This document shows, in pieces, positions 15,316-28,517 of a DNA stretch of 64,000 bases. How positions within the stretch are numbered: the first letter of the stretch is position 1; every line of letters begins with the position of its first letter. The stretch is from the NCBI GenBank assembly GCA_963762195.1, contig CAVXJX010000012.1:127044-191043 (forward strand), read 5' to 3'. The notes beneath the pieces are model-generated. The model was not told the origin of the DNA and made no database searches. It saw only the letters and a program-made list of their open reading frames with translations. The stretch is from an uncultured Solirubrobacterales bacterium. Lineage in GTDB: Bacteria > Actinomycetota > Thermoleophilia > Solirubrobacterales > JBBDJG01. The translations under genes were made by a program, and so were the position numbers.

Positions 15316-16671
15316 CTACAGGACCGGCAGGTACTTCTCGATCTCCCAGGTGGAGAGCTGCGTGCGGTAGTCGTCCCACTCCTGGCGCTTGATCTCGACG
15401 AAGCGCGTGAACACGTGCTCGCCAAGCGTCTTGAGGATCAGCTCCGACTCCGAGGCGATCTCGATCGCCTCACCGAGCGTCTCGGGCAACTGCTCGATGC
15501 CGAGCTTCTTGCGCTCGTCGGGCGACAGGTGGTACAGGTTCCGCTCCATCGGCTCGGGCAGCTCGTAGCCCTTCTCGATGCCCTCGAGACCCGCCTGCAG
15601 AAGTGCCGAGAAGCACAGGTACGGGATTGCAGGCCGGATCCGGGCTGCGAATCTCGCAGCGCGTCGCCTGCTCCTTGCCGGGGTGGTAGAGCGGCACCCG
15701 GATCAGGGCCGAGCGGTTGCGCCGTGACCACGCGACGTACACCGGCGCCTCGTAACCGGGCACCAGGCGCTTGTAGGAGTTGACCCACTGCGCGAACAGC
15801 GCCGAGATCTCGCGTGCGTGCTTGAGCTGCCCGGCGATGAACGACTTCGCGACATCGGACAGGTAGAACTGGTCGTTCTCGTCATAGAACGCGTTGCGAC
15901 CGCCTCTTGAACAGGGACTGGTGCACGTGCATGCCCGACCCGTTCTCGCCGTACAGCGGCTTTGGCATGAAGGTCGCGTAGAAGCCGTACTTCATCGCGT
16001 ACTCCTTCACGGTGATGCGGTACGTCATGCAGTCGTCGCACATCTTCAGCGCGTCCGCGAAGCGCATGTCGACCTCGTGCTGCGACGGGCCGACCTCGTG
16101 GTGGCAGTACTCGACGTGGATGCCGAGCTGCTCCAGCGCGAGCACCGTCTCGCGGCGCAGGTCCGAGCCGGCGTCGAGCGTCGTGAGGTCGAAGTAGCCG
16201 CCCTTGTCGAGCACCTGCGGCGGGCCGCCGCCGGTCTCGGCGGAGCGGAAGTAGAAGTACTCGAGCTCCGGCCCGATGTAGAAGTCGTCGAAGCCCATCC
16301 CCCGCATGCGCTCGAGCGACCGGCGCATCACCCACCGCGGGTCGCCCTCGTAGGGCTCGCCGCCGGGCACCTGCACGTCGCAGAACATGCGGCCGGTCGC
16401 CTTGTCCTCGGGCCGCCAGGGCAGGATGTCGAATGTGGACGGGTCCGGCATCGCGATCATGTCGGACTCCTCGATCGGGTTGAAGCCGGTGATCGACGAG
16501 CCGTCGAAGCCCATGCCGCCCTCGAAGGCGTCTTCCAGCTCCGGCCCTGTTGATGGAGAAGCTCTTGAGCTGGCCCAGGATGTCGGTGAACCAGAGGCGG
16601 ATGAAGCGGACGTCGCGCTCGTCGCAGATTGCGGCTACGTCCTCAGGCGTCTTGGGGGCTTTCTCTGCCAA
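15316..16671 (-). pseudogene. glnA: glutamine synthetase type I, three frame breaks
   Basis: RBS GGAGGA plus TTG 16671. Motifs: MAEKAPKTPEDV...VRFIRLWFTDILGQLKSFSIN | ELEDAFEGGMGFDGSSI...ELEYFYF...HHEVGPSQHE...NGSGMHVHQSLFK | GRNAFYDE...NSYKRLVPGYEAPVYVAWS.RNRSALIRVP... | YLCFSALLQAGLEGI... Breaks at ~16548, ~15905 and ~15622 are each repaired by deleting 1 nt. Confidence 0.9.
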
Positions 16672-18001: not shown

Positions 18002-18571
18002 CTAGGCGACCTTCTTGAGCGGCTTGACCTCGCGCGAGGTGCCCTCGAGCGGGATCTCACCGGCAAGCGTTACGAGGGACGAGAAGTCCGCGAGCGCAAC
18101 GTGCGCCAGCGCCTCGAGGATCTGCTCGTCCGTCCAGCCTTGCTCACGAGCCTCCTCGTGGAGGTGCACCGGCACCGCCCCGCTGTTCTCGAGCATCGTC
18201 TCGAGGTAGCGCAGCAGCGCGGCTTCGCTTTCGTCACGGGAGTGGAATCGCCGCGCGGAGTCGATCTCGTCCAGATCGAGCCCCACGGCCCTCCCGGCGC
18301 GCGCGTGCACCGCGACGTCGTACTCGGAGCCCCGGTACTCGGCGACCGCAAGCGCGATGCGCTCCTGGGTCGCACCCGGCAGCGTGCCGCGCCGCAGCTC
18401 GGACCGCATCCGGGCATAGCCCCGCAGGGCCGCCGGCGACGAGGCGAGCACTCCGACGAAGTTGTTGAGCTTGCCTGTGCCTGAGAGTGCTCCCTTTAGG
18501 ATCGGGGCGCTCTCGGGCGGAGCGGTGAGCTCGTCGTGGATATCGAACCTGCTGATCTTGGCAGCCATCAC
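18002..18571 (-). CDS. carboxymuconolactone decarboxylase/AhpD-like family protein
   Basis: Intact 189 aa (GTG 18571 or ATG 18568) with ...SPAALRGYARMRSEL..GTLPGATQERIALAVAEYRGSEYDVAVHARAG...ILEALAHVAL..., a CMD-domain pattern. Confidence 0.75.
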   Translation of the reverse strand: MMAAKISRFDIHDELTAPPESAPILKGALSGTGKLNNFVGVLASSPAALRGYARMRSELRRGTLPGATQERIALAVAEYRGSEYDVAVHARAGRAVGLDLDEIDSARRFHSRDESEAALLRYLETMLENSGAVPVHLHEEAREQGWTDEQILEALAHVALADFSSLVTLAGEIPLEGTSREVKPLKKVA

Positions 18572-18712
18572 TTTACTTTCCGATTGAAGCTACAAAAATA
18601 GCTATCTGCTTACTGAAGGTTAGGTAGTTTACAAAACGAAACGGCGAATGCAAACTTCGGCCCTGAAGGCCCGTTTCCTCTCCCTTATACGTAGGTCGAG
18701 CGCGCGTGGATG

Positions 18713-19420
18713 TCAGTGCGTCGAGCGCAGCCGGGCGGTGCTGACCATGCCGAGCTTGCGGGCCGCAGCAGCCGTCAGGTCCCAGGCCACTCCGTGGCGG
18801 AACGGGCCGCGGTCGATCACCGGCACGGTGATGAAGCGCCCGCCGCGGTAGAACGTCACCGGGGTTCCGCAGGGCAGCGACTTGTGGGCGACGCCCAGCG
18901 TCGCCCGGCGCAGGCGCTTGCCGCACGCAGTGCGGTTGCCGTACAGGCCCGGGCCGTACCAGGTCGCGCGCCGATACCGCATGAGCGCGAGCAAGCCGGG
19001 CCTGGTCTGCGGTCCGACGACGCCGTCCGCCGCCAGTCCCGCCTCACGCTGGAAGCGCTTCACGGCGGTGGTGGTGGCGGCGTCGAAGATCCCGGTTGGC
19101 TTCAGAGCCCCGTAGTGGCGGGCCTTGAGAATCGCCTGCAAAGTACGGACATCCGGGCCGGTGCTGCCCTCCTCGAGCACGCGCTCCCCGAGCTCGGCCG
19201 CCGAGGGTGCGCCCACGTCCGGGGCGTCCGCCGCCGGCGACGGGGAACCTGGCGAGCCGCCCGTGTCACCGCGCGAGGTCGTCGCGGCCAGCAGGATCAG
19301 GAAGATCCCGAGCAGCAGCGCCCACGCGGCCACCCTGTCGGGGCGGGAGCGGGCCATCGGATTGTTCGAGACCGTACGTCGGCGCGACGCAGCGCGCTGG
19401 CGCTCGAGGCGTTGGGACAC
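18713..19420 (-). CDS. secreted peptidoglycan-binding (PG_binding_1) + RlpA-like double-psi beta-barrel protein
   Basis: 235 aa with an N-terminal TM/signal (AAWALLLGIFLILLAA). The PG-binding repeat reads GSTGPDVRTLQAILKARHY...TGIFDAATTTAVKRFQREAGLAADGVVGPQT. The DPBB part reads ATWYGPGLYGNRTACG...LGVAHKSLPCGTPVTF...VPVIDRGPF. Confidence 0.8.
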   Translation of the reverse strand: MSQRLERQRAASRRRTVSNNPMARSRPDRVAAWALLLGIFLILLAATTSRGDTGGSPGSPSPAADAPDVGAPSAAELGERVLEEGSTGPDVRTLQAILKARHYGALKPTGIFDAATTTAVKRFQREAGLAADGVVGPQTRPGLLALMRYRRATWYGPGLYGNRTACGKRLRRATLGVAHKSLPCGTPVTFYRGGRFITVPVIDRGPFRHGVAWDLTAAAARKLGMVSTARLRSTH

Positions 19421-19434
19421 GTTCCTCTCTTTCT

Positions 19435-19600
19435 GGCGCTTACGGGGTTAGCTGACGGGCTCGCGCTGAAAGAGCTGCGCTACGCCTGATCGGCCTCAGT
19501 GCCGGCGGCGATTCGCCCCTTCGCGGTCCTGGACGGCAGGACCGCAGTGGTTCCCCCGCTCCTCGACAGCCATCCACATGGCTCGGCCGAGGACTCAGCG
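19435..19600 (-). promoter_or_regulatory. ydaO/yuaA-type c-di-AMP riboswitch in the 5' leader of the RlpA-like gene
   Basis: The minus-strand RNA reads CGCUGAGUCC...GAGCGGGGGAACCAC...GGGGCGAAUCGCC...GCGAGCCCGUCAGCUAACCCCGUAAGCGCC. This matches the conserved blocks recalled for ydaO (CGCUnAAUC, GGGGGAnCCA, GGGGUGAAUC, CCCGnCAGCUAACCUCGUAAGCG). It ends 15 nt before the GTG at 19420. Confidence 0.75.
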
Positions 19601-19712
19601 GTCAGGTCTGTGCTGCGAAGCGCGGCATCTTAGCAAGGTTGACTCGACGAGTCAATCTTGTGTGGAAGGACTCTTGCTCCCGGCCGCGACGGACCGTTGA
19701 AAGGAGGCTCGC

Positions 19713-20066
19713 CTAGGAGCCGGCTTCGAGCCGGCCCTGCTCCTCGGCGGTGCGGTCGGCCCACGGGAACGGCCTCGAGGCGCCCGTCCGGGATCGGCTC
19801 CCCGCTTTCGACGGAGGTGCCGTACGTGCCCTCCTCCAGGCGCTGCTCGGCCCGCTCGATGGCGACGAGCTCCTGCTCCAGACGCGTGATCATGGACTGG
19901 TCGCGCTCGTTCTCGAACAGCTCCGAGCCCGCATCGGCGGTGTGCTGGTCGACACGCGAGAGGTCGTCGTCGCCGTCGCCGCGAGCGGCAGCGCAGCGAG
20001 GCACAGCTCCTCCTGGATTCGCTCGCGTTCTCGTTGCAGCAGCTGTGCGGCTCGGTCTTTGTCCAT
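19713..20066 (-). pseudogene. DksA/TraR-family protein lacking the four zinc-finger cysteines, two frame breaks
   Basis: RBS GGAGG plus ATG 20066. Reads MDKDRAAQLLQRERERIQEEL... | GDGDDDLSRVDQHTADAGSELFENERDQSMITRLEQELVAIERAEQRLEEGTYGTSVESGEPIPDGRLEAVP | WADRTAEEQGRLEAGS*. The break at ~19981 needs 1 nt added; the break at ~19764 needs 1 nt removed. Confidence 0.65.
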
Positions 20067-20125
20067 GCTGAAGAAGGCCTCCTGACAGGCGGCGGGGAAG
20101 GCCGTAAGTTAGCGGCTCGCCTGGT

Positions 20126-22877
<2,752 letters not shown>

Positions 22878-23876: not shown

Positions 23877-23902
23877 GAAAAGCCCCGCAAAGCGGGGCTT
23901 TC
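23877..23902 (-). terminator. intrinsic terminator downstream of rnpB
   Basis: The minus-strand RNA forms AGCCCCGC-UUU-GCGGGGCU (8-bp GC stem) followed by UUUCUACUUU. Confidence 0.65.
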
Positions 23903-23905
23903 CCG

Positions 23906-24234
23906 TAGTAGACCTGTAAGCCGGATTCTGTCGTGAGCAACCATCTGTCTGTGCGGCCTACCTGGACCTCAGCGGGCAGCCTCGACGGTCCTGCTTGGCC
24001 TTGCACCGGGTGGGGTTTGCCTCGGCCGCCGTGTCACCACGGCGCCGGTGCGCTCTTACCGCACCATTTCACCCTTACCGGTCACGCCGTTCACGTGTGA
24101 CGGCGCAACTTAGGCGGTGTCGTTTCTGTGGCACTTTCCCGCGGGTTTCCCCGGGTCGGCGCTACCGACCACCCTGCCCTGCGGTGTCCGGACTTTCCTC
24201 GAAGGCTTCACCTCCGCGATTGCTCGGTCTACGA
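23906..24234 (-). ncRNA. rnpB: RNase P RNA, bacterial type A
   Basis: The minus strand contains CGAGGAAAGUCCGGACACC, ACAGAAA, GGUAAGGGUGAAAUGGUGCGGUAAGAGCGCACC, GCAAACCCCACC and ACAGAAUCCGGCUUACAGGUCUAC. P1 pairs GUAGACC (24232..24226) with GGUCUAC (23914..23908). ORFs called here are spurious. Confidence 0.88.
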
Positions 24235-24243
24235 GGGTCAAGT

Positions 24244-28385: not shown

Positions 28386-28471
<86 letters not shown>

Positions 28472-28517
28472 CTGCACGCGAGCGGCTAGGGAAAGAACAG
28501 ACCCCCGGCCGCCTCCC

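Follow-up and report, generated by a model that had tools for sequence, protein, structure and literature searches.

Results

A c-di-AMP riboswitch precedes an RlpA-like gene

The window (the whole 64-kb stretch of DNA analyzed here) derives from an uncultured Solirubrobacterales bacterium, a soil actinobacterium. Its minus strand carries an intact open reading frame (18713-19420, GTG start at 19420) for a 235-aa protein with PG_binding_1 and DPBB_1 domains, and the gap upstream of this gene measures ~295 nt (19421-19715), the stop codon of the upstream gene lying at ~19716. An earlier reading of the letters (hereinafter designated the sequence-only reading) had given the gap 290 nt and held that it is not empty; the gap is indeed occupied, and the length is adjusted here. 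A promoter, a riboswitch aptamer and the GTG of the PG_binding_1 and DPBB_1 gene all lie on the same strand, which gives the aptamer a cis 5'-leader location.

A scan of the entire window with Infernal and Rfam 15 at gathering thresholds returned only one riboswitch match, to the c-di-AMP (ydaO/yuaA leader) family RF00379, at 19422-19610 of the minus strand. The match spans the full model (positions 1-134 of 134) and scores 73.4 bits with an E value of 4e-15, almost twice the gathering score of 38, in agreement with the ydaO/yuaA class proposed by the sequence-only reading. The four blocks typical of the class that it had listed on the minus strand upstream of the RlpA-like gene are all present: CGCTGAGTCC (19600-19591), GAGCGGGGGAACCA (19561-19548), GGGGCGAATC (19519-19510) and GAGCCCGTCAGCTAACCCCGTAAGCG (19462-19437). 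The outer CGCU and AGCG pair as P1 in the way it had suggested (19600-19597 with 19440-19437) and enclose the aptamer core (19437-19600). The extent assigned to the element, 19435-19600, holds for this core and not for the limits, with the 3' strand of a pseudoknot located at 19433-19427. Nor does the element end 15 nt before the ribosome-binding site (RBS), as had been supposed: the gap between P1 and the GTG is 16 nt long (19436-19421) and holds both the Shine-Dalgarno (SD) sequence and the pseudoknot strand.

The core blocks CGCUGA, GCGGGGGA, GGGGCGAAUC, GUAG, CGAGCCCGUCAGCUAACC and CGnAAGCG, compared as sequence blocks, are identical to those of the 4QLM RNA. The structures 4QLM and 4QLN contain a 108-nt RNA crystallized with two c-di-AMP molecules, the sequence of which is given in PMC5393176. 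The window RNA is almost certainly a genuine member of RF00379, and judging from family membership and the identical core its ligand is very probably c-di-AMP.

Helices P1-P7 form in the window and covary in related loci

When the Rfam consensus structure is mapped onto the window, the pairs of P1-P7 are all canonical with the sole exception of an A.A in P4. P2 is formed by UCCUCG/CGAGGA (19593-19588/19565-19560), P3 by GCGGGG/CCCCGU (19559-19554/19447-19442), P5 by GGG/CCC (19518-19516/19459-19457), P6 by CGCC/GGCG (19510-19507/19486-19483) and P7 by GCGC/GCGC (19480-19477/19466-19463), all on the minus strand. At its base, P4 has a closing C-G pair followed by the A.A mismatch, and its extended stem (19545-19537/19531-19523) is a 9-bp extension, GCGGUCCUG/CAGGACCGC. 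The insertions relative to the Rfam consensus are well-paired hairpin extensions at the tips of P2 (AGCCAU/AUGGCU), P4 and P6 (CGGC/GCCG), tips that are variable in the family.

We aligned the window element and 36 related elements with plain MAFFT, with no fitting to the structure. On this unfitted alignment of 37 loci, 87.9% of the cells are paired, compared with 36.6-54.6% in slid controls in which the 3' partners were moved by 1-3 columns. Both sides change in 33 of 55 pairs, and none of 500 shuffles reached the observed pairing values. P2 (98% of cells paired) and P6 (90%) show both-side changes in all of their pairs, 6/6 and 4/4, respectively. Compensatory changes are found in 2/4 pairs of P1 (95%), and both-side changes in 1/6 pairs of P3 (98%) and 1/4 pairs of P7 (100%); P5 is paired in 100% of cells and invariant. 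The ability to form the pseudo-twofold fold, on which the class assignment of the sequence-only reading depended, is supported by the formation of P1-P7 in the window and by the covariation in 37 loci.

Unconstrained minimum-free-energy folding of the leader gave a z score of -1.10, which is uninformative as a significance test. An anti-aptamer pairing between the conserved leader CUUCGC (~19619-19614) and the P4 3'-side GCGAAG was considered and rejected by eye, because three related loci (L004, L005 and L007) alter one side without compensation.

A covarying pseudoknot strand overlaps the ribosome-binding site

In the loop of P7, the strand CUCUUUC (19474-19468) covaries with the 3' tail of the aptamer, where its partner GAAAGAG (19433-19427) ends 6 nt before the GTG. 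The duplex energy of this pseudoknot is -9.5 kcal/mol, and its topology matches that of the crystallized RNA, which contains the equivalent pseudoknot CUCCUUCG:CGAAGGAG in the sequence that PMC5393176 provides. The pseudoknot does not figure in the sequence-only reading. The SD-like sequence GAGAGGA (19429-19423, with the core GAGG at 19427-19424) shares 3 nt with the pseudoknot 3' strand in the window; occlusion of the remaining SD bases would rely on proximity alone. With the nested aptamer helices enforced and the pseudoknot left out, the tail strand is 71% unpaired and therefore available to ribosomes unless docked.

The pairing CUCUUUC:GAAAGAG is the majority form, present in 37 of 81 riboswitch instances. 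Seven loci carry the variant UCAUC:GAUGA, and further matched loop:tail variants are CGUUCG:CGAACG, CUCGUUC:GAACGAG, UCGUC:GACGA, UUCAC:GUGAA, CUUUCUCU:GGAGAAAG, CUCUCUU:GAGAGAG and ACUCA:UGAGU; in 9 of the 81 instances, a convincing loop-tail pairing is missing. Counting Watson-Crick pairs only and taking one representative per distinct loop (n=38), own tails give a mean helix of 5.21, compared with 3.59 for swapped and 3.60 for shuffled tails, and the observed mean was reached by none of 2000 tail permutations. In the MAFFT alignment, 86% pairing is seen in the columns of the pseudoknot in spite of register noise, and 6/6 pairs change on both sides. A contiguous-helix statistic that tolerates G.U pairs was also tried and set aside in favor of the Watson-Crick-only measure, the permutations and the set of loop variants that contain purines; it does not discriminate (means of 5.68 for own, 4.69 for swapped and 4.68 for shuffled tails), since a loop made of pyrimidines can pair with nearly every purine-rich tail.

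The position of the start codon relative to the pseudoknot strand was determined, with heuristic start calls, for the 71 instances in which the pseudoknot has 5 bp or more. The start codon follows the strand by 0-13 nt in 56, overlaps it in 11 and follows it by 14-36 nt in 4. The window shares the arrangement GAAAGAGAGGAAC-GTG with loci L001-L009, L011 and L052. No terminator-like site (hairpin plus U-tract) was found in 18500-19900, and a terminator or other separate platform has no room because the P1-to-GTG gap is so short.

The regulated gene encodes a putative membrane-anchored lytic transglycosylase

The 235-aa product begins with an Arg-rich tail and then a transmembrane anchor. Both domains that the sequence-only reading had named in the downstream protein are matched in Pfam, PG_binding_1 at aa 87-140 (E value 1.5e-17) and DPBB_1 at aa 152-227 (E value 1.3e-12; 48.2 bits vs a gathering score of 28.8). 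Among PDB entries, the DPBB part best matches P. aeruginosa PA4485 (4avr, E value 1.3e-9), with the DRGP motif aligned, and the residues that make up this motif (D203-R204-G205-P206) are invariant in 17 homologs. A SPOR domain was not found in the product by Pfam, PG_binding_1 being present instead; nor was a lipobox found, the N-terminus having the Arg-rich tail and transmembrane helix in its place. Because the SPOR domain and the lipobox are missing, the protein would be RlpA-like in its catalytic domain only. The domain content suggests a putative membrane-anchored, peptidoglycan-binding RlpA-like DPBB lytic transglycosylase.

In the public annotation, the identical protein begins at an internal ATG and has 214 aa. 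The real start is the GTG at 19420 rather than this ATG, because the 21 N-terminal residues before the internal ATG are conserved as protein among homologs and the GTG is preceded by GAGAGGAAC. This correction of the start codon is not part of the sequence-only reading.

A σ70-like promoter and a conserved palindrome lie upstream of the aptamer

A σ70-like promoter (19627-19655, minus strand) comprises the -35 hexamer TTGACT (19655-19650), a 17-nt spacer and an extended -10 element, TGcTAAGAT, in which the TG extension accompanies the hexamer TAAGAT (19632-19627). It is the only promoter-like site in 18500-19900, where shuffles predict 0.0, and it is conserved in loci L001-L007 and L011. The predicted transcription start at ~19620 corresponds to a 5' leader of roughly 200 nt.

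Overlapping the -35 hexamer is an inverted repeat, TTGACT-N5-AGTCAA (19639-19655), with 1 match in the 64-kb window and 0 in 100 shuffles. The orthologous loci L001-L007 and L011 contain it with an N4 spacer, once per locus and at the same promoter position, and a sister clade has TAGTTAGAACTAACT at the position of the palindrome. We regard the palindrome as a candidate operator for some transcription factor. The sequence-only reading contains neither the promoter nor its conserved palindrome.

Indel errors are common in the assembly of the host: two frame changes set the upstream DksA/TraR-like gene apart from intact orthologs, the aconitase gene has a frame change near 21,700, and glnA is spread across three frames. 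Because indel errors are this frequent, single-base details may be artifacts, among them the A.A in P4 and the additional G by which the palindrome spacer is 5 instead of 4 nt long.

The riboswitch-DPBB pairing recurs across Thermoleophilia

Relatives with PG_binding_1 and DPBB_1 number in the thousands and come mostly from soil metagenomes, the named ones being Solirubrobacterales. A scan with one genome per species gave 457 encoding stretches, and the best 80 of these 457 were used as related loci; almost all of the 80 belong to metagenome-assembled genomes of Solirubrobacterales and other Thermoleophilia. In 76 of these best 80 loci, an RF00379 match at or above the gathering score immediately precedes the homologous gene. 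Among the four loci that lack such a match, L024 is devoid of upstream sequence, L061 carries the motif yet gives no match at the gathering score, and in L036 and L048 the motif was not found upstream of the homolog. Three loci (L042, L045 and L046) have a second RF00379 copy, located before a neighboring gene of ~680 aa with a Beta_helix domain. Among the same best 80 of 457, the ORFs after the riboswitches contain DPBB_1 in 71 and PG_binding_1 in 44 cases. The link between the ydaO-class element and the RlpA-like gene, drawn by the sequence-only reading for the window, is upheld by these Thermoleophilia loci. The riboswitch-DPBB pairing is an old and conserved feature of Thermoleophilia, because it recurs with such regularity both in the upstream matches and in the domains of the downstream ORFs.

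DisA is common in Actinomycetota. A diadenylate cyclase (DAC) motif of the GTRHR(A/S)A type was not found in any frame of the 64-kb window, and the search for it in the related loci gave only a spurious out-of-frame match.

Discussion

Probable translational repression by pseudoknot docking

The window element is probably best explained as a ydaO-class riboswitch that acts as a translational OFF switch through docking of its pseudoknot at the RBS. Transcription from the σ70-like promoter would produce the leader, in which the aptamer would adopt the pseudo-twofold P1-P7 architecture. Binding of c-di-AMP would stabilize the compact fold together with the pairing of P7 loop and tail, and the docked pseudoknot would keep the RBS-proximal strand bound to the aptamer and prevent 30S binding. 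At low c-di-AMP, the tail would be free and the lytic cell-wall enzyme would be made. With a pseudoknot on the SD sequence and neither a terminator nor space for one, a translational OFF switch is the most likely outcome; the overlap of the pseudoknot with the RBS is the likely regulatory link. Both the direction (OFF) and the regulated step (translation) are inferred, and we consider it reasonably likely that translation is the primary step. The literature contains similar proposals: in one review, ydaO is classed with riboswitches in which docking hides the RBS (PMC10907184), and RBS blocking has been named the likely mode in S. coelicolor (PMC8079986).

The main rival keeps the same aptamer and places the regulated step in transcription, through non-canonical or Rho-dependent termination, or in mRNA stability. 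It draws on S. coelicolor rpfA, for which PMC9960051 and PMC10117811 describe lower transcript levels and, although a canonical terminator is lacking, in vitro termination that depends on c-di-AMP. Translational repression also commonly exposes mRNA to Rho and RNases, such that a secondary effect at the transcript level is likely anyway. Against attenuation at the window locus stand the lack of any terminator-like hairpin with a U-tract in 18500-19900, the absence of space for a separate platform both here and in related loci, where start codons follow the pseudoknot by 0-13 nt, and the fact that the helix in contact with the RBS is precisely the covarying one. We consider this reading unlikely; attenuation or altered stability might act as an additional layer, but it has no sequence basis at this locus. 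The opposite direction of control, in which ligand binding would free the RBS from an alternative pairing and turn expression ON, gains some color from a small predicted hairpin between GAGG and CCUC in codons 5-6, the SD sequence being 43% unpaired when the aptamer is enforced without the pseudoknot. An ON switch is nonetheless extremely unlikely: the ligand-bound crystal structure includes the pseudoknot (PMC5393176), which directly engages the RBS-proximal strand, and the characterized members are all OFF switches (PMC9960051).

Other riboswitch classes include variants with altered specificity, and a ydaO-class fold might likewise sense another ligand, such as ATP or another adenine nucleotide, or represent a specificity variant. 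Initially the class was described as an ATP sensor (Watson and Fedor 2012, cited in PMC5575661). This is very unlikely for the window RNA, in which all core blocks are identical to those of the RNA crystallized with two c-di-AMP molecules and the RF00379 score is typical of the family; for the class, AMP binding is weak and the primary ligand was found to be c-di-AMP (PMC5575661). The error-prone assembly and the long insertions in P2, P4 and P6 relative to the Rfam consensus could also point to a decayed, non-functional relic or to chance resemblance in G+C-rich DNA. The E value of the match, its position upstream of the orthologous gene in 76/80 loci with compensatory changes that preserve the helices, and the well-paired nature of the insertions themselves leave this reading a negligible likelihood, and conservation together with covariation effectively refutes it.

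Comparison with known systems

The window riboswitch has the aptamer of RF00379, of which B. subtilis ydaO/kimA is the prototype: P1-P7, a P7 loop that pairs with the 3' tail as a pseudoknot, and identical conserved core blocks. In the prototype, an intrinsic terminator lies downstream and the target is a K+ transporter (PMC9960051), whereas the window riboswitch lacks a terminator, has its start codon 6 nt past the pseudoknot and precedes a gene for a cell-wall enzyme. The C. glutamicum nlpC (cg2402) riboswitch is also actinobacterial, located before a cell-wall hydrolase gene and devoid of a canonical terminator; repression there is most likely translational, and a pseudoknot with the RBS has been hypothesized (Reich et al. 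2023, PMC9960051). The C. glutamicum target differs in being an NlpC/P60 peptidase in a seven-gene operon (PMC9960051), and the CTCC:GGAG pairing proposed for it is a hypothesis without comparative support, whereas loop-tail covariation over ~70 loci is available here. S. coelicolor rpfA is another actinobacterial OFF switch without a canonical terminator before the gene of a secreted glycan-cleaving enzyme, as described in PMC10117811; according to the same source, its target is an Rpf (lysozyme-like plus LysM) and transcription attenuation has been reported (St-Onge et al. 2015, 2017). The docking-type preQ1-III and cobalamin env8 riboswitches also pair an aptamer loop with a strand that is adjacent to or includes the RBS, with the ligand favoring docking (PMC10907184), but their folds and ligands are unrelated, making the likeness a mechanistic analogy and not homology.

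The product of the regulated gene resembles proteins of the RlpA/PA4485 type in a DPBB_1 domain with conserved DRGP and D-L-(S/T) motifs. Gram-negative RlpA is a lipoprotein with SPOR, whereas the window product, a putative enzyme, has an N-terminal transmembrane anchor and PG_binding_1.

The occurrence of this riboswitch class before cell-wall hydrolase genes in actinobacteria, which the sequence-only reading had taken as known, is documented (PMC10117811, PMC8079986, PMC9960051). S. coelicolor has 7 c-di-AMP riboswitches before genes of secreted cell-wall hydrolases, and S. venezuelae and S. lividans have 6 each (PMC10117811, PMC8079986). The searchable literature, a scope distinct from the gene lists of Block 2010 and Nelson 2013, contains no co-mention of a ydaO/c-di-AMP riboswitch with RlpA or DPBB, and no co-mention of Solirubrobacter with c-di-AMP. 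We do not claim the RlpA-like DPBB target as a new type.

Significance

That actinobacterial c-di-AMP riboswitches precede cell-wall hydrolase genes is already known, and RBS occlusion has been proposed for them. The window riboswitch is one more ordinary case of a familiar element, which would not surprise a riboswitch specialist and which routine Rfam annotation would find. ORF-based pipelines miss such a non-coding element; its correct annotation is added here, and the start codon of the downstream gene is corrected. The finding puts a putative lytic transglycosylase of an uncultured Solirubrobacterales bacterium under second-messenger control and extends the link between c-di-AMP and cell-wall hydrolases in Actinobacteria to the deep-branching class Thermoleophilia.

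What the analysis adds is modest and lies in the mechanism: covariation identifies the helix that touches the RBS as the aptamer's own pseudoknot. The comparative support for the pseudoknot/RBS mechanism is useful but unsurprising. A pseudoknot on the RBS offers a simple, testable account of terminator-less actinobacterial c-di-AMP riboswitches.

Looking at Thermoleophilia as a whole, we lean slightly towards the view that these riboswitches have no separate expression platform, that pseudoknot docking constitutes the whole of the regulation, and that the RlpA-like DPBB protein is a core c-di-AMP target. If this is true, the pseudoknot 3' strand would double as or abut the RBS, with the start codon 0-13 nt downstream, across Thermoleophilia, and at least seven independent compensatory loop/tail variants would support the translational mechanism so far hypothesized for the terminator-less actinobacterial c-di-AMP riboswitches. 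Co-regulation by a factor that binds the conserved -35 palindrome would be possible, and the RlpA-like DPBB transglycosylase would be the cell-wall enzyme at the core of c-di-AMP control in this little-studied lineage.

Start site and surroundings of the riboswitch-controlled gene

The public gene call for the product of the riboswitch-controlled gene (protein record P0001) places translation initiation at an internal ATG at position 19357, giving a protein of 214 aa. We favour the GTG at 19420, which gives 235 aa and an ORF spanning 18713-19420 on the minus strand, as the start codon because the 21 upstream residues are conserved and an SD sequence is present. A carboxymuconolactone decarboxylase (CMD) family gene (18002-18571, minus strand) lies 141 nt downstream on the same strand; a scan of 18500-19900 revealed no terminator-like site between the two genes, and their co-transcription is possible.

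Upstream, the window carries a bacterial class A RNase P RNA (23901-24235, minus strand; 226.9 bits) and a tRNA-Leu with anticodon GAG (28386-28472, plus strand). Many of the related loci (L numbers; the best 80 of 457 encoding stretches) have RNase P RNA on the strand of the riboswitch and 50-1400 nt upstream of it; those listed are L014, L020, L021, L025, L026, L030, L033, L035, L038, L040, L041, L043, L047, L049-L051 and L053. A tRNA often lies further upstream of the RNase P RNA in these loci, and the synteny is therefore conserved. In the lineage of the window, the aconitase gene, a putative lipoprotein gene and the DksA-like gene intervene between the RNase P RNA and the riboswitch.

Frameshifts in neighboring genes

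The DksA/TraR-like gene upstream of the riboswitch (19716-20070, minus strand), whose zinc-finger region contains no cysteines (YGTSVESGEPIPDGRLEAVPW), displays two frame switches in the window, whereas it is unbroken in L001, L002, L004-L006 and L011; an assembly indel error is the most likely origin of these switches. The aconitase gene (20109-22877, minus strand) occupies two reading frames with a switch near 21680-21710, and its N-terminal and C-terminal parts are otherwise both intact; the split probably reflects an indel error and not a pseudogene. The glutamine synthetase (glnA-like) gene (15316-16671, minus strand) is spread across three reading frames and must therefore contain at least two frameshifts within ~1.3 kb. 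Many further neighboring stop-to-stop segments overlap in differing frames, which suggests that indel errors are widespread across the window.

Variation among riboswitch instances

Convincing pairing between the P7 loop and the 3′ tail is absent in nine of the 81 riboswitch instances compared (L018, L022, L054, L056, L066, L076, L077, L079 and L080), among which L018, L076 and L079 are examples with very short P7 loops. Three loci harbor a second RF00379 copy (L042:336-478, L045:414-556 and L046:531-673; 81-89.5 bits), which stands before a gene of ~680 aa with a Beta_helix domain. This gene is located directly upstream of the riboswitch-DPBB unit, and the three loci therefore contain two predicted riboswitch-controlled genes in tandem.

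A palindrome at the riboswitch promoter

The riboswitch promoter has a perfect inverted repeat, TTGACT-N5-AGTCAA (19639-19655), that overlaps its -35 hexamer. The repeat occurs once in the window and in one copy per locus, with a spacer of N4 in L001-L007 and L011 compared with N5 in the window. Members of a sister clade (L008-L010, L012, L013 and L052) carry another palindrome, TAGTTAGAACTAACT, at the equivalent promoter position. The -35 inverted repeat looks like a candidate operator for a transcription factor and, if it is one, would add a second layer of control on the riboswitch-controlled gene.
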